The notes beneath the pieces are model-generated. The model made no database searches. It saw only the letters and a program-made list of their open reading frames with translations, and was not told the origin of the DNA. DNA of 32,000 nucleotides. It comes from Candidatus Poseidoniaceae archaeon. Its GTDB lineage: Archaea; Thermoplasmatota; Poseidoniia; Poseidoniales; Poseidoniaceae. The stretch spans positions 120,001 to 152,000 of the forward strand of contig CALSTM010000001.1 of the NCBI GenBank assembly GCA_943789275.1, read 5' to 3'. Of this stretch, positions 3,680 through 26,552 are shown piece after piece (positions within the stretch are counted from its first letter, which is position 1; every line of letters starts with the position of its first letter). A program made the position numbers and the translations under genes.

Positions 3680-4378
3680 ATGGGCCCCGTGATGAAAGCG
3701 ACACGAGTGTGGAAAATCTATCCATCAGGGGAATCTACAGTTCAAGCGGTGAAAGGTGTCGACGTGAGCGTTGATGCTGGTGAAATGGTGGCCATCATGG
3801 GCCCTTCTGGATGTGGGAAAACAACGCTGTTGAACATTCTTTCAGGCATTGATGAGCCAAATTCTGGCGATGTGCATGTGAACGGTGAACCCCTGTTTGG
3901 AATATCTGACAATCAACGTACACGTATGCGGGCTGAGTACCTGGGTTTCATTTTCCAAGATTTTAATCTCCTACCTGTCCTTTCTGCGGTCGAAAATGTC
4001 GAACTACCACTCCTTTTGCTCGGTAACTCCGCCTCAGAAGCACGGGCAGGTGCACTGGAGGCGCTTCAGTCTGTTGGACTCTCTGACAGAGCGGAACATC
4101 TCCCCTCGGAACTGTCTGGTGGTCAGCAGCAACGGGTTGCAGTCGCACGAGCACTTGTTCACAATCCTGCGGTCATTCTTTGCGATGAGCCGACGGGTAA
4201 TCTTGACTCAGTGACATCTTCAGAAGTTCTTGAATTGCTCCACACACTGAACCGTGAACGCAACACGACTTTCCTCATCGTTACCCACGACCCTATGATT
4301 GCTGAACGGTGCACAAGGACATTACAGATGTCTGACGGAACAATTGTTGAAGACCGGCGTAATGATGAGGAGGAATGA
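3680..4378 (+). CDS. ABC transporter ATP-binding protein, MacB/LolD type
   Basis: Walker A GPSGCGKTT, Q-loop, signature LSGGQQQRVAVARAL, Walker B ILCDEPTGNLD, H-loop VTHD. The stop overlaps the next start (ATGA at 4375-4378). An alternative start is ATG 3692. Confidence 0.95.
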   Translation: MGPVMKATRVWKIYPSGESTVQAVKGVDVSVDAGEMVAIMGPSGCGKTTLLNILSGIDEPNSGDVHVNGEPLFGISDNQRTRMRAEYLGFIFQDFNLLPVLSAVENVELPLLLLGNSASEARAGALEALQSVGLSDRAEHLPSELSGGQQQRVAVARALVHNPAVILCDEPTGNLDSVTSSEVLELLHTLNRERNTTFLIVTHDPMIAERCTRTLQMSDGTIVEDRRNDEEE

Positions 4379-11588: not shown

Positions 11589-12246
11589 AACAGTCGACTG
11601 TGTTACTGCATTCGAGATCTCTCTTGGTGCTGGAAACACATCGTATCCTTACTCTGGACAATCCACGACCCATGGTGTTGAATACACTGTGACTGTTGCA
11701 GTTTGTAACGAAGTCGGATGCAGCAGCCCAGTCGGAACAGGCACAGTCGTTGCAGACAGTGCTGTTGATGGCGATGCTAGCGCAACCAACCTCACCATCG
11801 CTGCAGCTGAAAACACATGGACTGTTTCATGGACTCCTGCTGGCGCACAAGATGATGTTGCTTCATGGAAGGTTTGCTACCAACGTGGTACCTTCGATGC
11901 TGCAAACATGCCTGAAACTTGCCTTGATGCGACGGGTACTACACTCGATGTTGACATTTCAACCTGGTCTGCTGGAACCTACACCTACCACTTCACTGCA
12001 GTGCCAGTGGATGCTCTGGGTAACTCCATGGCAGCAGCATCAATGAACAGCATTGACTACCAACGTGATGGTGATACGAGCAACACTGGTGATGGAACCA
12101 CTGTCATCGGCGAAGATGTCGAAGGTGGCGTTCCTACATGGACATGGGGCGTCATTGGTGGCGTCGTCGTCGTCGCATTCATTGTTGGCGCATTCATCCT
12201 CTCCCGTGGTGGAGAAGGCGACGAAGGCAAAGATTGGGATTACTGA
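11296..12246 (+). CDS. 3' portion of the same surface protein: two Fn3/Ig-like modules, TM anchor, short acidic tail
   Basis: The first ~57 codons of this ORF (MQHLYG...WHKRT) do not look like protein. From ~11467 it reads VPSASITGFNAAAAKGGAIQINWDVDG..., then a second module (NLTIAAAENTWTVSWTP...). The TM anchor is WGVIGGVVVVAFIVGAFIL (about 12139-12213) and the tail is GEGDEGKDWDY. Confidence 0.75.
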   Translation: MQHLYGTSTAHPGLSLVMFQLMLMQQRVSSPTSSLQIHRFSRTVNWCSWVVLWHKRTVPSASITGFNAAAAKGGAIQINWDVDGTMLAGDSIDVTVCETVDCVTAFEISLGAGNTSYPYSGQSTTHGVEYTVTVAVCNEVGCSSPVGTGTVVADSAVDGDASATNLTIAAAENTWTVSWTPAGAQDDVASWKVCYQRGTFDAANMPETCLDATGTTLDVDISTWSAGTYTYHFTAVPVDALGNSMAAASMNSIDYQRDGDTSNTGDGTTVIGEDVEGGVPTWTWGVIGGVVVVAFIVGAFILSRGGEGDEGKDWDY

Positions 12247-12271
12247 TCTTTCCTCCGGCAAGAATGAATCA

Positions 12272-12335
12272 TCCCTCTTACGAGAGGGAAGAGCCGCTGA
12301 GGGGGCCGTTTCGACGGCCCTCTCGGCCTCCTTTT
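12272..12335 (+). terminator. Two GC-rich hairpins plus T-run after the surface-protein gene
   Basis: Hairpin 1 is TCCCTCT-TACG-AGAGGGA (12272-12289). Hairpin 2 is GAGGGGGCCGT-TTCG-ACGGCCCTCTC (12299-12324, 11-bp stem with 1 mismatch). TTTT follows at 12332-12335. Confidence 0.5.
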
Positions 12336-12467
12336 ACTCCTCTTACACACCCTGACTTTGGAACTGGGTGTTTCGAATTTTTCAACGGAATTCATCATTT
12401 GATCACTGGGATTATTCTGAGACTTTTCTCAAGTGTTACTTTTACAAATTGTATGCTCCACTCATGG

Positions 12468-12508
12468 GCAAAGATGAACTCCAGTAAAGCGTATTGCAGT
12501 TCATTTGC
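12468..12508 (+). promoter_or_regulatory. Inverted repeat in the upstream/leader region of the giant adhesin gene
   Basis: GCAAAGATGAACT (12468-12480) - N17 - AGTTCATTTGC (12498-12508). The core ATGAACT/AGTTCAT is perfect. It lies ~90 nt upstream of ATG 12599. Confidence 0.35.
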
Positions 12509-12598
12509 AACCGAGAAAATCAAACATATTGCACCCCAACTCCTATAAGGGGAGCAAGGCGTGGGATGCTTTGCATACAATCCGTATAGGTGAATGAC

Positions 12599-15500
12599 AT
12601 GTTGGGAATAAAGAATACCAAAAAAGCATCTGTCTTTAACGGAATTGGCATAGCACTGTTGTTGTGCGCATTGATGGCCCTCATGCCTATGGCTGGGTTC
12701 GTCGATAACAACGCAGGCGACGTGGAGTTTGTAGCTATAAACGACACCGCAGAGGATGACCTCCTCGCTTTGCCAACTTCGAAAGATACAGGTATAGAAT
12801 ACGAATACGAACCATCCGATGAACTCATCGGCATGAGAGACCAAACGACCAAGACCTTCGTCCTTGAAGACGGCAAATTTGCGCAATTAACGCACAATTC
12901 GCCAGTACACTTCTTGGGTGATGAAGGAGAATGGACAGACATCGACCTCAACGTCGTTGCAACTGCCGAAGGGTGGGAAGTGAATGATAATACATTCAAA
13001 ACCCACTTCGCTCCTGAAACATCGAACGGTGTTGCTGTTCAAGTCGATTCTTCGGTCGATCCATTGATCATGGGTAAGAACCCCATGTTGATCACCATGG
13101 ATGAAACAACAACGACTCCAGAACCCTACGCTGCGGCTCCATCAAACGATGAAGTCGAAATTGGTGGAAACATGGTTCGTTACCCTCTTGCAGAAGGCTT
13201 CTCTCTTGACTACACAGTCATGAGCACTCAACTCAAGCAGAACTTGATTGTTGAAGAACGCCCAATTCTAAAGGAAACTGATGCATGGTTCGGTTTCTCC
13301 GAAATGATGCAACTTCCAACTGGATTTGCACTCTTCCTCGGTGAAGAAATGCTTGGTGAAGAAATGACCCAAACCCAAGAACCACTCGACATCCGCAGCA
13401 TTGAAACTGGTGAACTGCTCGCACAGATTCCAGTTCCAGTGGTTGTCGAACAAGGCTCAGGAAACGAGCCGTACATGGCAACATACTTCATTCAAGTCTT
13501 GGACTCACAAGTTGTCATCTCGACCCTTGTTGAATCGGAATGGATTTTGGCCGATGACCGCGTTTTCCCGCTGGCTATCGACCCAACAATCAAGGTTACG
13601 AATGTGAACAGTGGATACTGTCTCAAGAACTACAACCGATGTTACATGGCTCGAACGACCACGTACCTGCAAAAGGGACAATATTCCTGGTCAAGCTCGA
13701 ACGTTAACGTCAACTACTACTTGCCATTCAATTCGTTTTCGTTTACATCAGCAAGCCAACTACCAAATCAGGCAACTGTTGAATCGATTTCGCACTACCA
13801 AACTTGGACGTACAGATCGGTATCCAGTTCAACAACCATCACGAACGCAGCAGCAGCAACGGTCCTTGAGGACTGTGGCTCTCCAAATTCCAGCAGTATG
13901 CCATACGGCTGGACAATGCCTGCGGCACCGACCAACGGTTGTTCAAGCACGCTTGCATCGAGTGCATACGCATCGACCAGCACACAATACAACAGTGCAA
14001 ACGCTCGAAAGCTTATCGCGTCCATGTGGAACAGTGATTCTTTCGACACAGTAACGCCACCTTCTTCGAACTGGGGCGGTACTGGAGTTTCTGCTGATGT
14101 TTGTACAACTGCTGCAACCTGTGCTACCAGCACACAAGCAAGTTACATCACAGACGCCCAGAACGGCACCTCGTCAGTGGCTATTGGATACAAAATCCCT
14201 ACCAACACCGGCTACCTTCGTTCATACCACTCCAACGGTGGAACAACGAACTCTTACATCAGCATCACCTATTCCGGTGGAATTGATGCAGACGCACCAA
14301 CATCTGGATTCATTCCATACCACGATGTAACTTCGTATGTCGAAGGTTCTCGAACCTTCTTCACCACGCTTACTGACTTGTCGAACATTGACACAACAGC
14401 ATCCAACAAGCCTACACTGAACTACGCATTCAACAACGGAACCTTTTCCAGTGTTGCTGCAACAAGCATTGGAACATGCTCAACAACAGCTTCCTCTTGC
14501 CAGTTCAGAGCAACCATGCCAACAGTTTCCGCTGGAGACTATGTGGAATACTACTGGAAGTTCCAAGATCTAAACTCCAATCCAAACATTGGATTTGATC
14601 CGGCATTGAGCGGTGCACAAACGGTCCCAACACCGTACCACTTCACCGTAGAAGATGTCGATGATGCAGGAGATGACAAGAAACTCACGGTTCTCATGAC
14701 TGATGTTCACGCAAGCAGTTACTCGAGCCCGAGAGCCAGTCAACTCATTGACCGGCAATTCACGCACTTTGACGGCAGCGATGAATTCTACTTTGAATTC
14801 GATGTCTCAACATGTGGAACTGGTTCAAACCAATGTTTCTTTACTGGATCAACCTGGGACGCTCCTAACTACTACTTCTACAACAACTGGATGGGGCAAC
14901 ACGCAACTGTTGCTGGATCCGGATTTAACGGAATGGGCTCCTCATCAACACGTTCAGACACCTTTGAACACATGACCAACGATGGTGGATACCTCACCAT
15001 CTCTGCAGACAAAGGGCCAGGCATGAATTTGCTGTACCTCTATGACTCTGTAGAAAATGCATTTGCAATGGTTGGTATTGGAAGCACACCAACAATTGAC
15101 AGCAAGTTGTCTGGTGGAGATGCAATGGACGCAAGTTACACTTACGCCAACTCACCTGCATACAAGATTACGCTGGGTTCAGATTCGGCTATGAATGCTG
15201 CTGGAAAAGAAACCTATGGTGGACAGATGGGTCTGTTCTCATTCGGAAACGAAACAGGTGGAGCTGGAACAAACGCTAACCGCTTGTGCGTAACAACGAA
15301 CGGTTTCGTTCACTTCTTCCGAAGTCCATACGCATCTCGAGACCAATGCTCTGGAGCTTACTACTACGGTGGTTCATACTTCAGCGGCGGAACGTCCGAC
15401 GAAAGAAGTCTACCTTCGTACGTTTGGTCGGGATGGGTTCACGCAATGGGCTACTACGGATCACAGGCTGCAAGCGGAACTGCAACATACAAAATAGGCG

Positions 15501-18500
15501 GTGTTGCACCAGTCCCTGACACCTTTGCTCCAATCGCAGATCACGCTGCGCTTTCGGACTCGCACAGCAAAGACCGAACCATTTCGGTGGTTTTGTCTGA
15601 TGGTGGAGACCCACCAAGCGGCCTGAACGTCAGCACAACTGCTGGAGTCGGACCTACTCTGTACTACCGAATCACATCTGCAGATGGCACAACTGGATCT
15701 TGGACTACTGAAGTCCTCACTCCTCAAAGTTCCTCGACTCGAGCAGAGTGTGCGACCAGTGCATGCACATGGTCTGCAGACATCGAAGACCTCGAACGTG
15801 GTTCAGAAGTTGAGTACTACCTCTATGCAGAAGATACGTCGAACGCATCAACTGCAGTCAACACATTGACAACCAGCACCGAATCCTTCGGTGTTGGCGA
15901 CCCGAACAAGATGTTCATTGTCGAATGGAGAGACATGCAATACACAAACAACAACTTCCGATGTACATACCAAGCAGTCTTCTACGACGTCACGAATGAA
16001 ATTGAATTCCATTACGATGATGCTTGTAAGAATGCATACGATGCGACAACAGTCGGATTTATGGATCAAACCCGCTCAAAGGGACAGACTATTCGTCACA
16101 GCACGAGTACCTCGTACCTTAACGGCGCAAATCCCCACACCAACAACTACCGAATCTCCACAGACAGTGGAGACGGTTCTTGGGAATCCTTCGATCGAGG
16201 TATGACCGCAATGTCGAACGGTATTGCTAGCGATATCCAAGGTACATCTGGTGGAAGCCCATCAGGATACTACTGTTCTTCGAGTTACTACTTCCGAACC
16301 TATGGCGCACAATGTGCAGATAACATTGCAATGCCGAATGGATTCAACTTTACTTACTTCGGAACAGATTACAACTACACAGACAGTAACGATCGAATTA
16401 ACATCGAACGTCACGGTAACATGCACTTCGTAGGCAGCGGTTCAACCGCGAACGTCCGTGCAATGACGACCTGGTACGGCAACATGCCGAAACTACCTTA
16501 TTCGTCGAACAGTGCTGCACCAGCAGGATTGATTGCACCTTACTGGTCCTACTACGGAACTTACTACTGCTACCAAAACACTGGTGCTGACTGTGGTGTA
16601 TTCTACCGAACCATGCCTTTCGAAGGCAAGGGTACTGATATCACTTCAGATATTACCTCCGATACCACTTGGGATGCTACAGACAGTCCAATCCGAATTA
16701 ATCCGGCTGGCGACTATCTAACCATTTCAGCAGATCTAACCATTGAAGCTGGAACCGTTATCCAAGTTGGTGCTGGCAAGGGAATCTCCTTTGACGGTGC
16801 ATGTGACCAGATGACAATCAACGGTAACTCCACCGACCACGTCCTTTTCGAAGGATACGCTGGAGCAGATTGGAAGGGTATGGCATTCACTGGGGCTTGT
16901 TCAACAAGCACAGATAACCGCCACGTCTTCTCTTATGTTGACTTCAAGAACACATCTGACGCAGCCATTGCTGCCGGTTCACGCCACGGCTCGAGCCCAA
17001 TTAGCAATGCCAACGTTGGGAACTTCACAATGGACCACGTGACATTCACGAACGTCGGTGCAGCTTTCGAACACGGAAGCGGCCAAGGAACTGTCCTATC
17101 GATGACTGAATTCAGTGTCGATGGAACCGACGGTTCATGTTTCGACTTCGCTGAAGATACTGACGCAAGCCTAACTGAAGGAACAATTGCTAACTGCAAC
17201 TTAGACGGTGGCGCCAACGACGGTGCTATTGTCAACGTAGCAGGTTCGACTGGTGGTGCACTCTTCTTAGAGAACCTCACAATTACCAACGCATACGTGA
17301 ACTTGATTAGTGTCGATTTGGATATGGTTACCATCTCAAACGTCACTGCAACAGCAGCGACCACACAATCTGGTGCAGCACTGAACTCTGATGCAGGCGC
17401 AGGTGCTGAAGTTGATATCTTCAACTTCGATGCTACTGATTACACATCAGTTTCGATTGACGCCATGGGCTCGATCATGATGACTGACGTGGATGTAGGA
17501 GCCGCTCAAATGAACTTCATGCCTGGTGGAAGCACGACTTCCTCCACGACTGGCGCATTTGGAGACAATGCAGAATTCGACAACATTACAGCAGGTTTCA
17601 TGAACATGCGAAACTTGCAACCTGGGGTCTTCAAGGGTATTACTGTTGATGATTTGAAAATTGCAGGCGACACGACGAACTCAGACACCGTAGTTATCGA
17701 CGATCTCGACGTCGGTCATTTCGAAGTAACTGGATGCAGTGGATGGAACTTGCTGGTCACTTCAATGACTGCAGAGCGGTTCACTTCCAACGGATGTTCA
17801 GCAGCCAAGAACACAGTGACAATTGCTGATTCAACCATTGCACACACATCTGCACTTGATTCAGCAGTTTATGCACGATACTCTGATGTGACGATTGGTG
17901 AAACCACCATGACCTCAACAACAGCAGGAGCAAACAGCATCTACCTCGCACAAGCAGATACGAACTCGAACGTTCGTCTCATTGCAGTCACTCAAAACGG
18001 GGACGATTGTGCTGATGCAACCGGTGGAACTGGAGACTGTGACGTTGATGTCGCCTCTTCATCCTCTGAGATTTGGTTTGGTGGATTGGCAACAGTTCGA
18101 ACATACCGAATGGCGCTTGTCAACAACGTTGCAACACAAATCTTCAAGTCTGGACACACCGTTACTGCTGCAGTAACAGACAGTTCCAGTTCAGAACTCT
18201 TTGAAGTTGGAAGTCACATCACTGATTCGGCAACATCGAACCTCGGAGCTGCGAGTGTTTGGGTCATCACCGGCGATGAGTCGGGTGGAAACACTTACTC
18301 AAACCACAATATCCGTGCATTCGGGCCAGCAGGTCAGAACGAAACAATGACCAGTGCCTCGTGGTATCCTACTGCAGGATTTACCATTGGCAGTACAATT
18401 GACCTTTTGCTTGAACCAGCACCTGTTGACTTCGATCAAGCCGGCATGGATTGTGCTTGGATGGACGCCTATGTCGACCCATCCAACGGCGCGCAATTGC

Positions 18501-19621
18501 CTACAAACGGAACCACAGCCACTGGAGCAACAATCTTTGAGTTTGACGGAACGCCGATGACCCTATCTGCTGACCTTACCCTCGATGGTTGTGTCATGAT
18601 TCTCAAGGGATCATCGCTCAAGGTGAAGAGCACTGCAACAAGCAGTCCAGTTCTCACCCTTACAAACGGTGGAAAAGTAGTCGTTAGTGTCTCAGCAGAT
18701 ACTGGCGCAGTTGGTGCAATCAGCGCGGTTTCGGCTTCGTATGGACTCAACATCGACATCGTACAAGGAACACTTGAACTCGATGGCGGAACTCTACGTG
18801 ACGTCGCACAAGATTCAACCACCGACGCCGCCCTACTTATCGGCGATGGAGCTACTTTGAAGATGATGGATGGTGCAACAATTTACGGTGCATCAGCAAA
18901 CTCCGACGAAATGGCAACTGTGAAGGTGAACGGAGGAACTGTGAACATCGCAGATTCGTCGATTGTGAACACCGGTCAAACGGGAACAGCCCTTTGGGTT
19001 GAAGCATCTGGTGGCTCCATTGACAATGTTATTGTCAAGAACGCTGCAGTAGGTATTCAATCCTTTAACGGTGCTCCACAAGTGGATGGCTTCACCTCGA
19101 CAGACAACACCGTTGGTGTTGATGTCTACGGTGGAATGTCGCTACCAACAATTTACCGAAGTACATTACTAAGCGGTCAAAGCACCGGTTGGACAACCTA
19201 CAAGATTGACTTGTCGACCTTCCTCGGAGATGACTTCTTGCAAGTTGGTACGAACAGTATCTACGGCGGTGGAAATGCTCACCCAAGATACAATTACGCT
19301 ACGACCAAGTATTACATGATCACCGACCGATACAACATTGAATTGGAAGATGATAATGGAAACGTTTGGAACATTACTGATTCAGAACACCTTGGATACT
19401 ATCCAATCAGCGCTGCAGACCCTAAGTCTGGTGCAACTGGATACTCGACCTACGCTGCTGGAGCAGTTGGCGGTGTGCCAAGTTGGGATTGTAATACCTA
19501 TGGCTACGCATACGGTCCAAATTACCCATCGAGCTTTATTGGATATTACTACCAAATCTATCAGCGAATGTCTGGTTCTAGCCCGTCATACCCTGGTTAC
19601 TACGACAGACAAGCCACTTGA
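12599..19621 (+). CDS. Giant surface adhesin, 5' portion (about 2,340 codons; frame broken at 19604-19611)
   Basis: ATG 12599 is preceded by TAGGTGA; the ORF track begins at GTG 12590. The signal/anchor is KKASVFNGIGIALLLCALMALMPMAG. The body is T/S/N/G/D-rich extracellular sequence with repeated modules (...GDYVEYYWKF.. / ..GSEVEYYLYAED..). Two modules carry F-x-F-x-Y-F-G...IAPYW-type patterns, followed by a long beta-helix-like repeat region. Confidence 0.85.
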   Translation: MLGIKNTKKASVFNGIGIALLLCALMALMPMAGFVDNNAGDVEFVAINDTAEDDLLALPTSKDTGIEYEYEPSDELIGMRDQTTKTFVLEDGKFAQLTHNSPVHFLGDEGEWTDIDLNVVATAEGWEVNDNTFKTHFAPETSNGVAVQVDSSVDPLIMGKNPMLITMDETTTTPEPYAAAPSNDEVEIGGNMVRYPLAEGFSLDYTVMSTQLKQNLIVEERPILKETDAWFGFSEMMQLPTGFALFLGEEMLGEEMTQTQEPLDIRSIETGELLAQIPVPVVVEQGSGNEPYMATYFIQVLDSQVVISTLVESEWILADDRVFPLAIDPTIKVTNVNSGYCLKNYNRCYMARTTTYLQKGQYSWSSSNVNVNYYLPFNSFSFTSASQLPNQATVESISHYQTWTYRSVSSSTTITNAAAATVLEDCGSPNSSSMPYGWTMPAAPTNGCSSTLASSAYASTSTQYNSANARKLIASMWNSDSFDTVTPPSSNWGGTGVSADVCTTAATCATSTQASYITDAQNGTSSVAIGYKIPTNTGYLRSYHSNGGTTNSYISITYSGGIDADAPTSGFIPYHDVTSYVEGSRTFFTTLTDLSNIDTTASNKPTLNYAFNNGTFSSVAATSIGTCSTTASSCQFRATMPTVSAGDYVEYYWKFQDLNSNPNIGFDPALSGAQTVPTPYHFTVEDVDDAGDDKKLTVLMTDVHASSYSSPRASQLIDRQFTHFDGSDEFYFEFDVSTCGTGSNQCFFTGSTWDAPNYYFYNNWMGQHATVAGSGFNGMGSSSTRSDTFEHMTNDGGYLTISADKGPGMNLLYLYDSVENAFAMVGIGSTPTIDSKLSGGDAMDASYTYANSPAYKITLGSDSAMNAAGKETYGGQMGLFSFGNETGGAGTNANRLCVTTNGFVHFFRSPYASRDQCSGAYYYGGSYFSGGTSDERSLPSYVWSGWVHAMGYYGSQAASGTATYKIGGVAPVPDTFAPIADHAALSDSHSKDRTISVVLSDGGDPPSGLNVSTTAGVGPTLYYRITSADGTTGSWTTEVLTPQSSSTRAECATSACTWSADIEDLERGSEVEYYLYAEDTSNASTAVNTLTTSTESFGVGDPNKMFIVEWRDMQYTNNNFRCTYQAVFYDVTNEIEFHYDDACKNAYDATTVGFMDQTRSKGQTIRHSTSTSYLNGANPHTNNYRISTDSGDGSWESFDRGMTAMSNGIASDIQGTSGGSPSGYYCSSSYYFRTYGAQCADNIAMPNGFNFTYFGTDYNYTDSNDRINIERHGNMHFVGSGSTANVRAMTTWYGNMPKLPYSSNSAAPAGLIAPYWSYYGTYYCYQNTGADCGVFYRTMPFEGKGTDITSDITSDTTWDATDSPIRINPAGDYLTISADLTIEAGTVIQVGAGKGISFDGACDQMTINGNSTDHVLFEGYAGADWKGMAFTGACSTSTDNRHVFSYVDFKNTSDAAIAAGSRHGSSPISNANVGNFTMDHVTFTNVGAAFEHGSGQGTVLSMTEFSVDGTDGSCFDFAEDTDASLTEGTIANCNLDGGANDGAIVNVAGSTGGALFLENLTITNAYVNLISVDLDMVTISNVTATAATTQSGAALNSDAGAGAEVDIFNFDATDYTSVSIDAMGSIMMTDVDVGAAQMNFMPGGSTTSSTTGAFGDNAEFDNITAGFMNMRNLQPGVFKGITVDDLKIAGDTTNSDTVVIDDLDVGHFEVTGCSGWNLLVTSMTAERFTSNGCSAAKNTVTIADSTIAHTSALDSAVYARYSDVTIGETTMTSTTAGANSIYLAQADTNSNVRLIAVTQNGDDCADATGGTGDCDVDVASSSSEIWFGGLATVRTYRMALVNNVATQIFKSGHTVTAAVTDSSSSELFEVGSHITDSATSNLGAASVWVITGDESGGNTYSNHNIRAFGPAGQNETMTSASWYPTAGFTIGSTIDLLLEPAPVDFDQAGMDCAWMDAYVDPSNGAQLPTNGTTATGATIFEFDGTPMTLSADLTLDGCVMILKGSSLKVKSTATSSPVLTLTNGGKVVVSVSADTGAVGAISAVSASYGLNIDIVQGTLELDGGTLRDVAQDSTTDAALLIGDGATLKMMDGATIYGASANSDEMATVKVNGGTVNIADSSIVNTGQTGTALWVEASGGSIDNVIVKNAAVGIQSFNGAPQVDGFTSTDNTVGVDVYGGMSLPTIYRSTLLSGQSTGWTTYKIDLSTFLGDDFLQVGTNSIYGGGNAHPRYNYATTKYYMITDRYNIELEDDNGNVWNITDSEHLGYYPISAADPKSGATGYSTYAAGAVGGVPSWDCNTYGYAYGPNYPSSFIGYYYQIYQRMSGSSPSYPGYYDRQAT
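13337..13366 (+). repeat. 15-bp in-frame tandem duplication (LGEEM x2)
   Basis: CTCGGTGAAGAAATG (13337-13351) is immediately followed by CTTGGTGAAGAAATG (13352-13366), 14/15 identical. Confidence 0.9.
16680..19140 (+). other. Right-handed parallel beta-helix-like repeat region within the adhesin
   Basis: Recurrent short repeats of the type TISADLTIEAGTVIQVGAGKGISFDG, LENLTITNAYVNLISV, TLELDGGTLRDV, VNIADSSIVNTGQTGTALWVEASGGSIDNVIVKNAAVGIQ. These match the PbH1/pectate-lyase-fold style. Assigned by eye only. Confidence 0.5.
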
Positions 19622-22600
19622 ATTTGGATTCGACTGGGAGCATATCGAAGGCGTCTCACCAACAGGTTCGTACGCTTACTATCCTTACCATTACTGGGGT
19701 GCATCCTACAGCACATACCAGGCTATGTACAACCCAGTGTTCTATCCTCCAGAAGGGTTCAAGGGAAGCTACAACATTTGTTACGACCGGGCCTACAGTT
19801 ACTACATGAGTGCTGGACAAGGTGCTCGAATGACCATGCCGACAATCGACATTTCTGCTGCAAACATCAGCAAGGTCTCGTTGTACATGGACGTTCTACA
19901 CAACCGTGCAGATAACTACCAAGATCGCCTTGAAGTTGTCGCCCGTTCGGGTGATAACGCAGCACTACTTGGTGCCTACGCTCGTGAATCCGGAACTCCT
20001 CTCTTCAAGGATGGAACAATCACTGGCGCTGACACAGGTGTAATGATCGGCGGCGAATTCGCTGCTGGACACATCCAAGATGTAACAGTGACCAGCCCAA
20101 CCGATTCAGGTTTGGAAGTCACAGGTCAAACTGCAGCAACCAGCGACGGATTAACCGTCACGGGTGGAGATTACGGTGTCCTCATTGGCAACTCAGCATC
20201 CGGTTCCATGGATTTCATGAACATTGATTTCGATGGTAACACAAACGCTGGAATGTACTATTCGAAGGATCTAGCAGGTGCTATGTCCGGAACTGTCGTG
20301 AACAGTGCTGCAGCATTCAAGTACGGACCAAACACGGACAACGATGTAACTTACTCTGACTTATCAATCGCCACCAATACAGTTGGTGTAGAAGCTGGCG
20401 GAAGCGGTGATTTCACGTTCACAGATGTGGCGATGAGTAACACGAAGGATTTCTCTATCACCGGACAATCGAACATTGAATTCATCGAAGGAACTGTGGA
20501 CTCGACTACAGTTGATGTCACAGGTACAGGCGAGTTTACTCGCATGCGATCTCTGGAAGTTGAGTTACTCGCTGATACATTTGCCGTTCCTGATGCAACA
20601 GTCACATTGATTGATGGGGATGGAGCAGCAGCAGGCTCTGGTACAACAGATTCGAGCGGTATTGCAGAAGGATTGAATTTCGTAACAGCAACAGTCGACA
20701 GCAGTGGATTATACATTCCGTCACTGACTGGATATGAAGTGATGAGTGTCGCCAAGATCGACTACTACTACACCACTTCAACGAATAACCTTGCAGATTT
20801 CCGATATGCATCTCAAGCAGTAACGCTTAGCGATTTAACAGGTAACAGTGCTACTGTACCACTTACCAACCAGATTACTGAGCGTGTATGTTGGTATTCG
20901 ACCAGTACACAATACACGACCGTCTCTCCATGTGCAGGTTCATTCTTCACGAGCGGTGTTCGTACCTATGACGATGGAAACGGTGGAACTGTCAACGAGT
21001 ATGCATACTCGAATTCCTTGACAATTGGACAAGAAGACAACACGATCATGATGGATACACCTTACATCTACTTCAAGTCGAACACTCCGTACAATTTGAA
21101 CGGAACTACAATTCTGTCAACTGGAGCCTACGACTTCTACGGTACACAGCGTTGGTACACAAGTTACCCTTACGGTGGCCAAGTCTACATGAACGATGCA
21201 GCCATGTACGGTGTTGCTGTTGATGATGAAGGCGATATGTTTGGTGTTGAAGTTGGTTACTATGGATCACCAATTACCACGTTTGTCGCGAACAACACAA
21301 TCTTCTCCAATGTTGCGAAGATTTCATCTCAGAACGGTTACACTTGGGGTACCTCGTCACAATACCTTTGGGAAATTGAAGAGTTCTCGGTCACGAACTC
21401 AACGATTACGCACTACCAAGGATACACAGAACTCAACAACGCAATCCAAAACACCGATATCTGTATGATTCTTGGTGGCGGTGAAAACTCAGTCGTGAGT
21501 GACAACATCTTCAACGACTGTGGTGTAGGTGTTCACCTGCAACGTTCACCTTACTGGAACCGGCATGCCGGTGTCGTTGGTGCAGACAACGCAACAATCT
21601 CCAACAACATCTTCAACGATGGTGGAGAAATTGCAGATATCTGGCTTTACCGTGACGGTTCATCCGACAACGCAATGATTTCTGGTAACATCCTGAACAA
21701 CGGTGGCGCTGCAGCAGCAGCTATTGCACTGTACGACGGAAGTCACACTGGAGTGATGATTAGTGGAAACACGATCAACGCAGCTACGGACGGAATATAC
21801 ATTGACAACGCCTTGGATTACCGAATCACCGGTAACACAATCACGGGTGCTGGAGATGCTTCATATGCAGCAATCAGCGCTTTGGAAGGCTACGGTGATA
21901 TCGATAACAACACAATCATTGATGCCGACGGTGGTATCATTGTCGACAGTGCAACATCACCACCGGCGCCAACAACTTCGTTGTGTTCAATTGCCAGCAA
22001 CTCGTACCGATACACTGCCACATGCAGTGCAACGCTCGCTGCAGGTAAGACATTGGATATCAACATCGCAACAGACAGTTGGGGATACGAAGCATCAATT
22101 GATGTAACGAAGCCTGATGGAACGGTTGACAGTTTCGGCCGTGGAACAAGCACAACATTCGCGAGCAACACACAGTATACGCCTCTTGTATCCTACTCTG
22201 CTCCTGGACTGTACGCTGTTTCCTTGCAAGATTCGTACGGTGACGGTGGAACAGATGTCTTCATGGTTGAAGGTGGAGTTGCTGCTGGTTACACCGGCCC
22301 AACTATCGCTGACAATTCGATTGGCATCTCTGCCGGTCGTACAGCACCAAGTGCTGTCGGACTTGTTTTCGAAGACTGTGATGGAGTGAGCATTAATTCC
22401 GCTCGAAACACCATTACATTGTCGGACATTGCAATGGACATTGACAACTGTGACGTTACCGACGTTTCCTCAGTGATTACCGGTTCGAACGATGCTTCAA
22501 CCGTTGGTATTGATTCTGATGATGCGAGCGGAGATACGCTTACCCTCAGTGGAACTACAATCTCTGGTTATGCAACCGGTGTCGAAAAGACAAGTGGAGA

Positions 22601-25600
22601 ACTCATCCTAACAGGTGATGCATCCATCACTGGAAGCGACTACGGTGTCAGTGTTGATGATGCAACTGTTGTAGCCATCAATGCTGCAGTGAACGGTGGA
22701 GCAACCGGAACCGGTCTCCACGTTGTTGACAGCGATGATGTGTGGGTCTACCCAATGAACGCTTCCGGATTGGTCGGAATGTACGTCGAGAACTCACCAT
22801 TCCGCTGGGATGGAGGAACCTCGACTGCTACGACCACGCTCGAAGTGGTTGAATCACAAGGTAGTATTGAAAACATGACTTGGACAACCTCGTCGACTCA
22901 AATTGATGCGGGAAGCAATGCCTACGTTACATCGATTGGTAACACCATCGATGAAAACCGCCTGGTCGTTGATTCATCTGCAACTATTGATGAGGCAAAC
23001 TTGTTCTCCATGGAATCAACTCACTTGAACGCAGCTCCTACAAAGGAAGTTGCAATGATGATTAAGTCCACAGACGGAACACGAGCATCCTATGTTTCTA
23101 CAACCTTCCAACCTGAAGTCATGACCGTTGACGGTTCAAATGACGACTGGATTGGTGGAAACGCCCTCAACCCATCTGGCTATGCAATGCCAGGTCTCAT
23201 GAGCGGTGATGGAACAAACGACATGCTTGTTACTTACATCGAAGGGGACGACCTTTACATTGGTCTTACCGGTGAAGATCTCGCAGCCAGCGACGTTCTG
23301 ATTTACCTCAGCGTTGACGGCAGCGGAAGCAGCACTGGTTACAACCTCGGTGGTTCACACAACCTGCCATTCCAAGCCAACTACGTGCTTTGGGCAGACA
23401 GTGAGAGTTCTTACGACTTGTACAGCTACGGTTTCCTTGGATGGGGCGCTACCTCACTCAGCTCGGCTACCGTCGATGTTGCATCTGCATCTGGATTGAC
23501 TGAAATTTCCATACCGTTCTCACGAATTGGTGGAACTCCAAGTCAAATCGACATAGTTGCCATTGTTCAAGGTGAATCGACTGCTGATGTCAGCACCGTT
23601 CACCCAACACAAACCATTGATTCGGCGAACACACTTCAGAACTTCACTCAGTACATCACCGTCGAACTTACTCACGATGATTTGTTGACTGGAGAAATTA
23701 ACGACGAAGTGCTGGTTTACCGCTCTTACAAGGGTTCGAACACACCAAGTGTCGCTAAGAACTATGACGTCATTATCAAGACGGAAGCAGATTGTGAATA
23801 CGACTGGGAAACAACAACGGATTTGTCGCTAGCGACAAACGTTGAAATCACCATGAACATGGCTCGTGCTTGCCCTGAGATTCAATCGACTCTCGATGAT
23901 ATCTCCGTGGCAGAAGACTCTGGTGCCTACACCTTTAGCCTAACCAACTTGGCTGATGACGTGCAAGACCTTGAGGCTGATCTCACTTGGACATCCGCTG
24001 CAGGAACCCTCGTCGCTTACGACAATGTGCTTGTAGACTGGAACCAAAATGGACAAACTGTAACCATTACTCCTCTTGACGACCAATTTGGAACTCTTGA
24101 ATACGAGTTTGAAGTTACTGACAGCAATGGATTGACTGACAAGAAGAACATTACCTTCGAAGTTACCAACGTGAACGATGCTCCGGTTATCTGCAACGTT
24201 GAGGACGCAGGATGTATGCCAATCTTCTCCTCTGACGACAGCTTTGACAACATCCTTGCAGAAGGATTTGGAACACACACCAAGGACCTTGGTACTGTTT
24301 CGAACGCTTCCAAGTCTTACATCCGAGACATGGCTAACGAGCAATCGCCTGTTCGCCAAATCTATGATTGGGATGCATCTGTTGACTCAACCTGTGTTGC
24401 GTTCACTGTAGAAGTGAACACGCTCAACTCGTTGATTATCACTGAGAACACATCCAACGAAAAGGGCGGTTCATGCACAGTTACGCTTGAACTCTCTGAT
24501 GATGGCGCTGAGAACACTGCAGCTACACCGTACACAGTCGACTTCTCAGTCGCACCAGTGAACGATGCTCCAGTGATTACCTTGCAAGACACCGACGGTC
24601 AGAACCTGTTGATCAGTGACGCTGGAAGCCGTGCAAACGGTGAAGGTGAATTCATCACCATGACTGAAGACGATACCAATGCTGACAACCTCACTTGGGA
24701 TCTGCTTCCATTGATGAACGATATTGACCACGATGTTCCTGCGGACCTTACTTGGACTGTTGAACCAACTGCACAGTGTGCATACACCAACTACTTCACA
24801 ACGGCAATCGTTGGAACAGACTTGGTCTTCACACTCATCCCAGACGCAACCACAAACGGATACGATTGGGAAGTTGACTACATGAACGATAACGGTATCC
24901 ACCAATTGCGACCAGGTGGCCAGACTTTCTGTGCCATCAACTTGGTTCTCGAGGATACTGCTACCGCACCATCACACACGCCTAACTACGATACGACTGT
25001 GCTCAACTCAGCATTCACTGAACAATTGGCACCGTACACTCAAGGACAAGACGATGTTGTGATGTATGTCACCATTGATCGTGTTGCAGAGAACGTCGCT
25101 GACTATTCTCTTGATGCAACCAATGGAGTGAACTTCAACGGAATTAGCAACATCATGACCGGTACCTATGTTCCTGTTTCAGTGAACATTGACGCTGGTG
25201 GCGATGAAGGACCATACAATTACGACCACATGTTGGCAGTGACCTTCCATACCGATGGACACTTTGAAGACGAAACTACTCGCTACTACAACGTTCCTGA
25301 CTACGGAACTACGTTGGTCGTTGAGGAGAACATCTTCATCACAAAGGACACAACCAAGGTCGAAGTTTCAATGGACGTTCTCACCTGTTTGAACAACCCA
25401 TGTGACCTCACCGTCTCGTCCAGTGAGAGATTCCAATCTGATGACCCTGAGTCGCACCGTGCAAACAACGGTGGTTCTCAAGGTGCTCTTTGGTCCTCTC
25501 CAGGACAATACGGTCAGAATGCATCGCAGACTTCGGAACGCCGACCAATGCTACAAGACAGCTTCTGGTGTAACAACCGAATGACAACCTTGGACCTTGC

Positions 25601-26384
25601 AACTGCTGAGGCGAACTCAGATTGGGGCAAGTGCAACGAGTACGCTTCTGGATCCGGTTCTTTCGGTGCAACTGCACAGAACCTACCAACCGTTGTTCGT
25701 ACAATCGGTGCAAGTTCTGTTGCCTCGTTCGCACCAAGCATTGTTGTGGTCAGTCTAACTGGTCTGTTCGTGAGCGCTCTTGCCTTCTCCAGCCGCCGTG
25801 CTGATGATGAGGAAGAAGTCGTTGAGAACACTCTGGAAAACGACGATATGGCTGTGAGCCCAGTTATCGCTACCATCCTTATGGTGGCGATCACTGTGGT
25901 TCTCTCCGGTGTCATCTATGTGTGGGCAAGTAGCCTAGCAGAGACCGATGTCAAAGGTGTACCTCGAGTGACCTTTGCTATCGATGATGTCAACAGCTTT
26001 GATGTCGATGAAGGCCACTGGCGAATCACTGTACAAGCTTCAGAAACTGACTTGGCAACTCAAGCAGTTGAGGTTCGAGTGTTCTACGTTGATGGCAATG
26101 GTGAACCACAAGTCAAGACGACCAATCTAGCAGATACTGCAGGCGTTTACGGATTCAATCCTCAGAACAGTGACTCTATGGTCACGTTCGTGGATCAAGT
26201 GAATACAGAAGGTGACGATAAGGTCTCGACCTTTAACACCGGTGACACAATCTTTGTGCGCACGCATGACACTGACGGAACACCTCTCGAAGATGTAACC
26301 ATCTCCCTGAACTATGCACCAGGTGCAGGTCAAGGAGCACAACTTCGTACATGGTCTGGCTTGTCTTACGACGTCAGCGCTTGA
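19338..26384 (+). CDS. Giant surface adhesin, 3' portion (real coding from ~19610): PbH1 beta-helix repeats, cadherin-like repeats, TM anchor, pilin-like C-terminal module
   Basis: The first ~90 codons of the ORF (MNWKMIMETFG...) do not look like protein. From DKPLEFGFDWEH onward the composition matches the upstream gene. There is no start codon or signal peptide near 19610; the first in-frame ATG is at 19725. Confidence 0.85.
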   Translation: MNWKMIMETFGTLLIQNTLDTIQSALQTLSLVQLDTRPTLLEQLAVCQVGIVIPMATHTVQITHRALLDITTKSISECLVLARHTLVTTTDKPLEFGFDWEHIEGVSPTGSYAYYPYHYWGASYSTYQAMYNPVFYPPEGFKGSYNICYDRAYSYYMSAGQGARMTMPTIDISAANISKVSLYMDVLHNRADNYQDRLEVVARSGDNAALLGAYARESGTPLFKDGTITGADTGVMIGGEFAAGHIQDVTVTSPTDSGLEVTGQTAATSDGLTVTGGDYGVLIGNSASGSMDFMNIDFDGNTNAGMYYSKDLAGAMSGTVVNSAAAFKYGPNTDNDVTYSDLSIATNTVGVEAGGSGDFTFTDVAMSNTKDFSITGQSNIEFIEGTVDSTTVDVTGTGEFTRMRSLEVELLADTFAVPDATVTLIDGDGAAAGSGTTDSSGIAEGLNFVTATVDSSGLYIPSLTGYEVMSVAKIDYYYTTSTNNLADFRYASQAVTLSDLTGNSATVPLTNQITERVCWYSTSTQYTTVSPCAGSFFTSGVRTYDDGNGGTVNEYAYSNSLTIGQEDNTIMMDTPYIYFKSNTPYNLNGTTILSTGAYDFYGTQRWYTSYPYGGQVYMNDAAMYGVAVDDEGDMFGVEVGYYGSPITTFVANNTIFSNVAKISSQNGYTWGTSSQYLWEIEEFSVTNSTITHYQGYTELNNAIQNTDICMILGGGENSVVSDNIFNDCGVGVHLQRSPYWNRHAGVVGADNATISNNIFNDGGEIADIWLYRDGSSDNAMISGNILNNGGAAAAAIALYDGSHTGVMISGNTINAATDGIYIDNALDYRITGNTITGAGDASYAAISALEGYGDIDNNTIIDADGGIIVDSATSPPAPTTSLCSIASNSYRYTATCSATLAAGKTLDINIATDSWGYEASIDVTKPDGTVDSFGRGTSTTFASNTQYTPLVSYSAPGLYAVSLQDSYGDGGTDVFMVEGGVAAGYTGPTIADNSIGISAGRTAPSAVGLVFEDCDGVSINSARNTITLSDIAMDIDNCDVTDVSSVITGSNDASTVGIDSDDASGDTLTLSGTTISGYATGVEKTSGELILTGDASITGSDYGVSVDDATVVAINAAVNGGATGTGLHVVDSDDVWVYPMNASGLVGMYVENSPFRWDGGTSTATTTLEVVESQGSIENMTWTTSSTQIDAGSNAYVTSIGNTIDENRLVVDSSATIDEANLFSMESTHLNAAPTKEVAMMIKSTDGTRASYVSTTFQPEVMTVDGSNDDWIGGNALNPSGYAMPGLMSGDGTNDMLVTYIEGDDLYIGLTGEDLAASDVLIYLSVDGSGSSTGYNLGGSHNLPFQANYVLWADSESSYDLYSYGFLGWGATSLSSATVDVASASGLTEISIPFSRIGGTPSQIDIVAIVQGESTADVSTVHPTQTIDSANTLQNFTQYITVELTHDDLLTGEINDEVLVYRSYKGSNTPSVAKNYDVIIKTEADCEYDWETTTDLSLATNVEITMNMARACPEIQSTLDDISVAEDSGAYTFSLTNLADDVQDLEADLTWTSAAGTLVAYDNVLVDWNQNGQTVTITPLDDQFGTLEYEFEVTDSNGLTDKKNITFEVTNVNDAPVICNVEDAGCMPIFSSDDSFDNILAEGFGTHTKDLGTVSNASKSYIRDMANEQSPVRQIYDWDASVDSTCVAFTVEVNTLNSLIITENTSNEKGGSCTVTLELSDDGAENTAATPYTVDFSVAPVNDAPVITLQDTDGQNLLISDAGSRANGEGEFITMTEDDTNADNLTWDLLPLMNDIDHDVPADLTWTVEPTAQCAYTNYFTTAIVGTDLVFTLIPDATTNGYDWEVDYMNDNGIHQLRPGGQTFCAINLVLEDTATAPSHTPNYDTTVLNSAFTEQLAPYTQGQDDVVMYVTIDRVAENVADYSLDATNGVNFNGISNIMTGTYVPVSVNIDAGGDEGPYNYDHMLAVTFHTDGHFEDETTRYYNVPDYGTTLVVEENIFITKDTTKVEVSMDVLTCLNNPCDLTVSSSERFQSDDPESHRANNGGSQGALWSSPGQYGQNASQTSERRPMLQDSFWCNNRMTTLDLATAEANSDWGKCNEYASGSGSFGATAQNLPTVVRTIGASSVASFAPSIVVVSLTGLFVSALAFSSRRADDEEEVVENTLENDDMAVSPVIATILMVAITVVLSGVIYVWASSLAETDVKGVPRVTFAIDDVNSFDVDEGHWRITVQASETDLATQAVEVRVFYVDGNGEPQVKTTNLADTAGVYGFNPQNSDSMVTFVDQVNTEGDDKVSTFNTGDTIFVRTHDTDGTPLEDVTISLNYAPGAGQGAQLRTWSGLSYDVSA
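19604..19611 (+). repeat. Tandem tetranucleotide GACA-GACA at the frame-change point of the giant gene
   Basis: The sequence is tac tac GACAGACA ag cca ctt. Deleting one GACA joins ...SYPGYYD to KPLEFGFDWEH... in one frame. Confidence 0.85.
21459..21950 (+). other. PbH1 / NosD-like parallel beta-helix repeats
   Basis: SDNIFNDCGVGVHLQ, ISNNIFNDGGEIADIWLY, ISGNILNNGGAAAAAIALY, ISGNTINAATDGIYIDNA, ITGNTITGAGDASYAAISA, IDNNTIIDADGGIIVD: the classic ~22-aa I-x-x-N-x-I-x-x-x-x-x-G-I periodicity. Confidence 0.7.
23901..24975 (+). other. Three cadherin-like/Ig-like adhesion repeats with VNDAPV linkers
   Basis: ISVAEDSGAYTFSLTNL...EFEVTDSNGLTDKKNITFEVTNVNDAPVI (VNDAP at 24171-24188). A second VNDAPVI is at 24558-24575, 129 codons later. 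The third repeat is ITMTEDDTNADNLTWDL...DLTWTVEP.... The x-N-D-A-P-x linker is typical of bacterial and archaeal cadherin-like tandem domains. Confidence 0.65.
25728..25790 (+). other. C-terminal transmembrane anchor of the giant adhesin
   Basis: FAPSIVVVSLTGLFVSALAFS is followed by SRR and an acidic stretch (positive-inside, then DDEEE). This parallels the TM plus acidic tail that ends the neighbouring surface protein. Confidence 0.75.
25848..26384 (+). other. Archaeal type IV pilin-like module (class III signal-peptide-like N-terminus, DUF1628/Pilin_N type), in frame with the giant ORF; possibly an independent 178-codon CDS
   Basis: M-A-VSPVIATILMVAITVVLSGVIYVWASS matches the hallmark (G/A)-(V/S)SPVI..IL.VAITV.L. 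The following ~150 aa (VTFAIDDVNSF..GHWRITVQASETDL..FNTGDTIFVRTHDTDG..AQLRTWSG) resemble the usual small beta-rich domain of such proteins. The stop is at 26382-26384. Confidence 0.7.
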
Positions 26385-26418: not shown

Positions 26419-26552
26419 GGGGAGGGGTTTTCCCCTCCCCTTTGTCTCCCGCATCCCTTGATCGGGATGACTACCTTTCGGGGTAGAGAGCTACACGATC
26501 GCAGGGGGTTTCCAAACGGGGCCCCCTGCCTTCGTCCCCTTTTTTTCTTTTT
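26419..26552 (+). terminator. Cluster of four GC-rich hairpins followed by T7 and T5 runs after the giant gene
   Basis: GGGGAGGGG-TTTT-CCCCTCCCC (26419-26440, perfect 9 bp). CATCCC-N6-GGGATG (26452-26469). CTACC-N6-GGTAG (26471-26486). GCAGGGGG-N13-CCCCCTGC (26501-26529). Then TTTTTTT (26540-26546) and TTTTT (26548-26552). Confidence 0.5.

Follow-up and report, generated by a model that had tools for sequence, protein, structure and literature searches.

In a stretch of 32,000 nucleotides from a Candidatus Poseidoniaceae archaeon (contig CALSTM010000001.1; the whole stretch is hereafter called the window), we find that the gene of a giant surface protein continues in frame past the transmembrane (TM) anchor of its ectodomain into a module that, judged by profile matches and a structural model, is a complete archaeal type IV pilin made of a Pilin_N helix and a beta-sandwich. 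We lean, if only slightly, towards the view that this one gene encodes a polyprotein-like precursor, from which the pilin would be cut away from the giant adhesin at an Ala|Val bond and would then serve as a low-copy filament subunit. By definition a class III (type IV pilin) signal peptide stands at the N-terminus, a position that, to our knowledge, every prediction tool presupposes and every known substrate of PilD, PibD and FlaK shares. The cassette described here suggests that a pilin signal peptide can lie deep inside a protein and is probably cut there, and prepilin peptidases would act on a wider range of substrates if a conserved and selected signal of this kind can stand internally, behind a membrane anchor. 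We know of no other adhesin-pilin polyprotein, and this one would be the first.

The pilin module, its leader-like loop and the giant gene

The C-terminal end of the gene comprises the following features, given in window positions.

25719..25739, + strand: motif V-A-S-F-A-P-S at the outer end of the first membrane helix (TM1); consensus VPSFAPS, whose S, F, A, P and S are each found in 78-80 of 80 genomes
25728..25790, + strand: TM1, FAPSIVVVSLTGLFVSALAFS, predicted stop-transfer anchor of the ectodomain, from hydropathy; conserved G121 and L127
25791-25847, + strand: linker SRRADDEEEVVENTLENDD, between TM1 and the ATG at 25848
25791..25853, + strand: predicted cytoplasmic loop SRRADDEEEVVENTLENDDMA, including the ATG codon and Ala; RR at 25794-25799 followed by an acidic stretch, a variable centre and D-D-(D/E)-x-A
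25853..25854, + strand: predicted prepilin-peptidase cleavage site Ala|Val, placed by homology to the leaders of P0119/P0120, P0317 and 8FJ5
25854..25940, + strand: pilin N-terminal hydrophobic helix VSPVIATILMVAITVVLSGVIYVWASSLA, from Pilin_N and TIGR02537 matches and the modelled helix
25968..26381, + strand: pilin globular domain, Ig-like beta-sandwich of 10 strands, from the structural model and Foldseek
26382..26384, + strand: stop codon TGA

The frame reads across the junction as ...VASFAPSIVVVSLTGLFVSALAFS-SRRADDEEEVVENTLENDD-MA-VSPVIATILMVAITVVLSGVIYVWASSLA..., the ATG at 25848 being followed by MAVSPVIATILMVAITVVLSGVIYVWASS, and runs on for about 150 residues to the TGA. The preliminary description of this DNA had given the anchor, the linker, the ATG, the ~150-aa tail and the stop at 26382-26384 with coordinates that prove exact to the base, and had taken the tail for a type IV pilin-like module with a beta-rich domain, an identification that is borne out by both profiles and structure. 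The Pilin_N family (PF07790) matches at 37 bits (E 6e-9, curated cut-off 25.2) and TIGR02537 arch_flag_Nterm at 36-38 bits (curated cut-off 20), and the closest PDB sequence by profile is 8FJ5, the type IV pilus subunit of Haloferax volcanii (E 9e-12), followed by Natrinema PilA2. An AlphaFold2 (AF2) model has a helix at model residues 55-81 and a 10-strand sandwich with pLDDT >90, TM1 and the loop being of low confidence; the top Foldseek matches (5z1l, 9eq7, 7ofq, 8rey, 4p94) are archaellins, a Cuniculiplasma filament subunit and FlaF, all of them modest (E 1e-4 to 3e-3). The module thus has the small residue (G or A) at -1, the hydrophobic helix of ~25-30 residues after it and the globular beta-sandwich that mark a pilin, and departs from the pilins in one respect, since the signal is not at the extreme N-terminus: the helix begins ~4,416 residues into the protein, behind a TM helix. 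The Kyte-Doolittle mean over 19 residues reaches 2.03 in TM1 and 2.54 in the pilin helix.

The segment between the two helices has the look of a class III leader. Relatives were scanned with one genome per species, which gave at least 518 loci, and per-locus counts refer to the best 80 of these (55-99% identity). RR directly after TM1 and Ala at -1 are each present in 80/80, and positions -3 to -5 are D or E; in the window the loop carries charges of +2/-9, its nine acidic residues coming after a pair of Arg next to TM1. A like acidic context with a small residue at -1 precedes the cut in true pilin precursors, which read ...TTLFNDDSA|VSPVIGVILMVAITVIL in 8FJ5 and ...GSDEERA|VSPVIG... in PilA2, set beside ...ENDDMA|VSPVIATILMVAITVVL in the window, and in the leaders of stand-alone pilins (P0119/P0120, ...NDEA|VSPVI; P0317, MNDKA|VSPVI). 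One metagenome-assembled genome (MAG), JAUREO01, has both a fused gene (L057) and a stand-alone pilin (L082, P0120: MGKEDKNMKNENRNDEA|VSPVIATILMVAITVVLAGVLYVWASSLA), the latter adjoining glycosyltransferases. It is on the invariant Ala(-1), the acidic residues at -3 to -5 and the match to 8FJ5, PilA2 and the stand-alone pilin of the same MAG that the likeness to a leader rests.

Frames of the giant gene were read from the list of open reading frames (ORFs) in the window, together with a tblastn search with P0121, an uninterrupted orthologue of 4,595 aa.

12599..19606, + strand: giant surface protein, N-terminal part, 2,336 codons, within ORF 12590..19621; P0121 residues 1-2293 align with 49% identity
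12599-12700, + strand: predicted Sec-type signal or anchor MLGIKNTKKASVFNGIGIALLLCALMALMPMAGF, an N-terminal hydrophobic segment; the gene starts at ATG 12599
19606..19608 (19606/7), + strand: +1 frameshift, one base extra compared with relatives, which splits the giant gene; from relatives' DNA and the tblastn junction at P0121 residue 2293
19608..25718, + strand: giant surface protein, remaining ectodomain, with beta-helix-like repeats and one Big_9/cadherin-like match
26419-26440 and 26516-26535, + strand: two GC-rich hairpins with T-rich tails 3' of the gene, the first (GGGGAGGGGTTTTCCCCTCCCC) conserved in L001

The preliminary description had placed some 4,400 codons of adhesin before the anchor in a single frame, and in this it overlooked the frameshift at 19606/7: ORFs 12590..19621 and 19338..26384 are in different frames, and the frame of the pilin module is open back only to 19338. 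P0121 is colinear with the window across both, residues 1-2293 falling on 12599-19606 and residues 2293-4595 on 19608-26381, and three relatives (L001, L002, L003) have TACGA-ATCCAAGCC where the window has TACGACAGACAAGCC, one base fewer, and read on as ...YYESKPLEFGFDW...; no homopolymer occurs at 19606-19608. Given this colinearity and the three shorter relatives, the intact protein of ~4,594 aa is judged to be the ancestral gene and the window copy a +1-frameshifted one. Since the adjoining large surface-protein gene at 9207-12246 is frameshifted as well, a sequencing error is as likely as real decay in the giant gene. In that neighbour the second frameshift lies near 11470, where ORF 9207-11588 (793 aa) ends in an odd Cys/Arg/His tail and the other frame, 11296-12246, carries on to a normal C-terminal anchor, ...GVIGGVVVVAFIVGAFILSRGGEGDEGKDWDY, and a stop. 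The membrane-proximal part of the giant ectodomain, within 19608..25718, is rich in Cys and Trp and conserved. The number of hairpins downstream of the gene is not above shuffled expectation, and as evidence they are weak.

Conservation of the fusion among marine relatives

The last 228 residues have 479 homologues, which come, where the source is named, from marine 'Euryarchaeota' or Thermoplasmatota MAGs, and 79 of the best 80 loci are labelled Poseidoniales or marine euryarchaeote/Thermoplasmatota MAGs, many of them Ca. Poseidoniaceae. The remaining locus, L030 (NZEQ01000026.1), has a Poseidoniales cassette and is filed under a 'Verrucomicrobiales bacterium' MAG, which is likely binning contamination. 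Nowhere in the best 80 loci does a stop codon occur between TM1 and the pilin helix, and in 78/80 the frame is open to the 5' end of the available DNA, for up to 3,384 codons. A HMMER search of 1.84 billion representative proteins for complete proteins ending in the module returned uninterrupted proteins of 4,372-5,559 aa, and one sequence in NCBI (MEC8576648.1, 4,578 aa) bears the automatic name 'archaellin/type IV pilin N-terminal domain-containing protein'. The preliminary description had offered, as the first of three possibilities, a true in-frame fusion with the ectodomain outside, then TM helix, loop, pilin helix and pilin domain outside; as an architecture this holds across no fewer than 80 genomes at species level, gene calls of full length show it too, and the cleavage that it added is treated below as a prediction.

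Wherever upstream sequence is present the order of elements is constant, namely LPxVV..IG..(V)PSFAPS, TM1, (S/G)RR, an acidic loop, DD-x-A and VSPVIATILMVAITVVLSG..., with a loop of 19-21 residues. The genes 3' of the giant gene (HAD hydrolase, PolD small subunit, CinA, Pelota, FTHFS) recur in relatives, which makes the relatives' giant genes orthologues at one chromosomal position, and the fused gene seems to belong to the core, syntenic genes of Ca. Poseidoniaceae, the archaea known as MGIIa within Marine Group II (MGII).

Conservation along the gene is uneven. The protein sequence of the helix is near-invariant in the best 80 loci, in part through ascertainment, since loci were found with helix peptides; in orthologues found without the word index, ~40% identical overall, the helix has only 1-4 substitutions. 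At the same time 26 of its 29 third codon positions are variable, and this free variation rules out gene conversion as the cause and marks a helix under strong selection at the protein level. Identity of the window to P0121 is ~72% over the module and 49-55% over the ectodomain; to L002 it is 99% over the C-terminal module in protein and 88% in the DNA 6 kb upstream. By these comparisons the cassette is far more conserved than the ectodomain that it terminates.

The cassette also occurs beyond the giant gene (family 1), in a second and unrelated protein family. Family 2, whose relatives were gathered with a C-terminal query because the full-length query P0261 was swamped by common words, consists of proteins of ~2,340-2,380 aa with an unrelated ectodomain (P0249, P0253, P0276 and fragments; L091 10001-17083). 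They end in ...(T/S)PSFAP(S/G/A), a TM helix, a basic loop (...KRRKKGYRRDREA| or ...GQKRKKDEDG|), VSPVIAIILMVAITIVLAGVLWLWVSGL and ~160 aa; the loop is thus basic where that of family 1 is acidic, and the residue at -1 is A or G (...RRDREA| or ...KKDEDG|), followed by VSPVIAIIL. The pilin module of family 2 has true stand-alone homologues with leaders of 5-23 residues (MNDKA|, ...WRNDDA|, ...SGNRKA|, ...KDRGG|), three tandem pilin genes among them. Within family 1, a distant orthologue, P0135 (L092, ENA ctg495766, 3.0 Mb, 67% GC; 10001-23119), has the same PolD/CinA synteny, and at L092 1-1028, 10 kb upstream of the fused gene, a T2SSF platform gene is accompanied by two small genes whose products begin with a hydrophobic stretch. 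Two further proteins, P0303 (4,377 aa) and P0304 (4,371 aa), are near-identical cluster members.

Predicted processing and its alternatives

On the reading that we slightly favour, the Sec signal would export an extracellular protein of ~4,370 aa, probably adhesive; TM1 would stop transfer and leave the loop of 19-21 aa (RR ... DD-x-Ala) in the cytoplasm; and the pilin helix would cross the membrane again and place the globular domain outside. With its ectodomain exported through Sec, its first helix stopping transfer, the loop following the positive-inside rule and the pilin helix lying N-in/C-out, the protein offers just the geometry that a class III signal needs. The loop would then be an internal class III signal peptide, cut between Ala and Val at the cytoplasmic face by an aspartic peptidase of the FlaK/PibD type, and we infer such a cut by a FlaK-type enzyme as the best-supported mechanism. 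Each precursor would thereby yield a single mature pilin, and the giant protein would stay anchored in the membrane through TM1. Since a carrier of 4,600 aa could not supply bulk subunits, the released pilin would most likely be a low-copy subunit (minor, priming or terminal), joining a stand-alone pilin encoded elsewhere in the genome, the first 30 mature residues of the two being almost equal. Production of the pilus and of the adhesin would in this way be coupled in amount and in place.

Several observations weigh against this reading. Position -2 is the most variable of the loop (entropy 2.6 bits; M, A, T, S, Q, L, G, V, R, H) and is Met in the window, and FlaK-type enzymes are said, from work in M. 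voltae and Sulfolobus, to favour Lys or Arg there. We know of no prepilin peptidase that cuts a site behind a TM helix and thousands of residues, and archaellin-like proteins of the uncleaved FlaF type are among the Foldseek matches. Pfam annotation finds no pilus machinery among the window neighbours, and a crude motif scan of 1.35 Mb of flanking DNA, which can miss divergent genes, turned up neither a peptidase nor an ATPase nor a platform gene. Lastly, the beta domain of family 2 also stands behind lipoprotein-like signals (...VMGC..., ...TMGC...; P0316, P0318, P0319, P0323, P0330), so that the domain may serve a surface role without a filament.

These points lend themselves to a rival explanation that we hold to be possible but doubtful, in which nothing is cleaved: the pilin-like helix would be simply the second TM helix of a hairpin, and the sandwich an attached membrane-proximal foot like ArlF/FlaF, which binds the S-layer, steadying or positioning the giant protein in the envelope and forming no filament. 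The soluble domain of FlaF (4p94) matches with a TM-score of 0.53 on the target, several members carry the Joint Genome Institute (JGI) name 'FlaG/FlaF family flagellin', the lipoprotein-like anchors of the homologous family-2 domain suggest a plain surface domain, and no pilus machinery adjoins the gene. A mere second helix, however, has no need of an invariant small residue at -1 and acidic residues at -3 to -5, nor would a plain TM segment need to be kept residue for residue with the helix of stand-alone pilins; the loop mimics real leaders in both families, and the profile matches are to Pilin_N and filament-forming pilins, not to FlaF models. A reading that adds a second cut to the first, and that we think quite unlikely, draws on the outer end of TM1, where the motif of PSF/PGF type would be a sortase-like signal that frees the ectodomain from TM1, the TM1-loop piece being discarded and the detached ectodomain either anchored to lipid or passed to its own pilin. 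Motif, hydrophobic helix and Arg cluster do resemble exosortase and archaeosortase signals, and the motif is invariant in family 1, is (T/S)PSFAP(S/G/A) in family 2 and becomes PGF-like (APGFLPS, with A-P-G-F) in P0135. When TM1 and motif from three variants were run against NCBIfam and Pfam with E up to 10, though, no PGF-CTERM, PEF-CTERM or other CTERM sorting-signal hidden Markov model (HMM) matched significantly in any of the three, and none did so for family 1 or the PGF variant; the best score was 10.3 bits for PEF-CTERM in family 2 (E 0.64, cut-off 23). Archaeosortase and exosortase signals lie by definition at the extreme C-terminus, yet ~200 residues follow the tripartite form (VPSFAPS, TM, RR) here, and our literature search found no report of an archaeosortase in MGII. 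A still bolder form of this idea, which we likewise consider improbable, would make the C-terminal ~230 residues a portable, doubly processed cassette on at least two unrelated giant proteins, cut in sortase-like fashion at PSF/PGF and by a prepilin peptidase at Ala|Val, with the freed adhesin staying bound to its own pilin and raised to the tip of a type IV pilus; if true, archaea would here have their own version of the PilY1-minor-pilin tip complex, made from a single polypeptide.

It is very improbable that the arrangement is two genes in disguise, through an internal start at ATG 25848, a recent loss of a stop codon or an assembly artefact. ATG does occupy position -2 in the window and its closest relatives, gene callers at times output 'pilins' of ~180 aa, and indel-type frameshifts occur elsewhere in the window. 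Counted over 81 loci, however, start codons are too rare in the loop: Met is at -2 in 16/81 (the window and closest relatives included), ATG is absent from the whole loop in 19/81 and ATG, GTG and TTG alike in 13/81, and a motif like Shine-Dalgarno stands near any potential start in only 3/81. The preliminary description had already remarked that GGAGGT before 9207 and GAGGAGGA before 4375 have no equivalent in ctggaaaacgacgat before 25848, and this is so; its own second possibility, internal initiation at that ATG, is refuted as a general mechanism by these counts. Its third, recent stop-codon loss, is refuted too, because the arrangement is kept down to ~40% identity and is present in the second family, and the fusion is in frame at every locus examined. 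The short gene calls that were checked proved to be artefacts, and gene callers and annotators either split the giant gene or label the whole protein of 4,600 aa 'flagellin'. P0058, a candidate stand-alone pilin, has an ambiguous N base in a frame actually open for 1,232 aa; P0060, another such candidate, has a 10-N scaffold gap inside VPSFAPS; P0081, a further short call, has a 100-N gap in a frame open for >3,000 aa; and P0009 (L085), a candidate stand-alone family-1 module, was rejected as a probable chimeric assembly across the shared helix. In L085 (ENA NODE_46715, 1,370 bp, 1.4x coverage) the 5' part is a stand-alone pilin locus, with the end of a Peptidase_M24 gene, an intergenic region and an MQNENRNEEA leader, and the 3' part is the fused-type domain and flank of L005, a make-up also found in P0070 and P0072; this is probably an assembly chimera, and may be the product of real recombination.

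Neighbouring genes and relation to known systems

By Pfam, the neighbours of the giant gene in the window are MscS, VTT, an ABC ATPase, a permease of FtsX/MacB type (1,536 aa) and an anchored protein of ~1,010 aa, and, downstream, HAD, PolD-DP1, CinA, Pelota and FTHFS. The ABC ATPase and the permease, which has a huge extracytoplasmic part, occupy 3680-8985, directly upstream of both large surface-protein genes; at L091 137-2065 a smaller pair of ABC_tran and MacB_PCD/FtsX lies ~8 kb from the family-2 gene. Transporters so placed may have a part in the handling of giant anchored proteins.

Marine Group II archaea are the commonest archaea of the surface ocean and MGIIa its dominant ones, and parts of a filament system have been described in them. 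The preflagellin peptidase gene flaK is present in 83/92 genomes of one group and 26/158 of the other (Tully 2019, Suppl. Data 10), the first being taken as MGIIa from the main text of Tully et al. 2019, and loci with flaB, flaH, flaI and flaJ are found in all MGIIa MAGs, along with extra flaI, flaJ and tadC (Orellana et al. 2019). The flagellar-type system of MGIIa has been argued to serve adhesion because chemotaxis genes are absent (Rinke et al. 2019). Attachment of MGIIa to particles or algae has so far been argued only from this archaellum-like operon without chemotaxis genes, and the cassette provides a concrete hypothesis for how a giant adhesin could be coupled to a filament in uncultured cells.

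The components of the cassette are familiar; their arrangement, and the internal processing that it implies, have no precedent that we know of. The view of the preliminary description that an adhesin-pilin order of this polarity is undescribed agrees with our literature searches: an internal or C-terminal pilin module goes unmentioned in a 2016 census of the type IV pili of archaea (PMC4858521), in a 2026 survey of type IV filaments (TFF) and in the MGII genomics papers that were searched. The nearest relatives are the Pilin_N (PF07790/DUF1628) pilins such as PilA of H. volcanii (8FJ5) and PilA2 of Natrinema (8GI2), which share with the module the HMM family, the sequence VSPVI(A/G)xILMVAITV(V/I)L, the ...DD-x-A| context and the build of helix and sandwich, and differ from it in that the class III signal of the window is internal, with ~4,416 residues before it that include a Sec-exported ectodomain and a TM helix.

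ArlF and ArlG (FlaF and FlaG), the stators, are thought to be envelope-binding parts outside the main filament, and resemble the module in having an N-terminal hydrophobic helix and a beta-sandwich, FlaF being a structural match; the module nevertheless belongs to the Pilin_N sequence family and not to FlaF/FlaG, and, unlike ArlF/ArlG, it has a conserved small residue and a loop resembling a leader, both of which speak for processing. With the PGF-CTERM and PEF-CTERM signals of archaeosortases the cassette has in common a P-S/G-F motif, a hydrophobic helix, an Arg cluster and a place at the end of a large surface protein, but its motif has no HMM match and is not terminal, ~200 residues coming after it. 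The bacterial tip adhesin PilY1/PilC and its minor pilins likewise tie a large non-pilin adhesin functionally to pilins of low abundance, a likeness that does not imply homology, and a precursor yielding adhesin and pilin 1:1 would bring about just such a tie; in bacteria, however, the partners are encoded apart and made as distinct proteins, PilY1 lacking a membrane anchor. Modular adhesive pilins, finally, such as PilB of Streptococcus sanguinis (PMC8179133) and the long archaeal proteins P0188, P0199 and P0223, also join a pilin and a large surface part in one chain. In these the pilin helix is N-terminal (at residues ~8-100 in the long archaeal Pilin_N proteins, the three named and others) and the adhesive module rides on the filament, whereas in the window the order is reversed: the large part comes first, with a TM anchor of its own between it and the pilin, and the two are predicted to be separated by cleavage.

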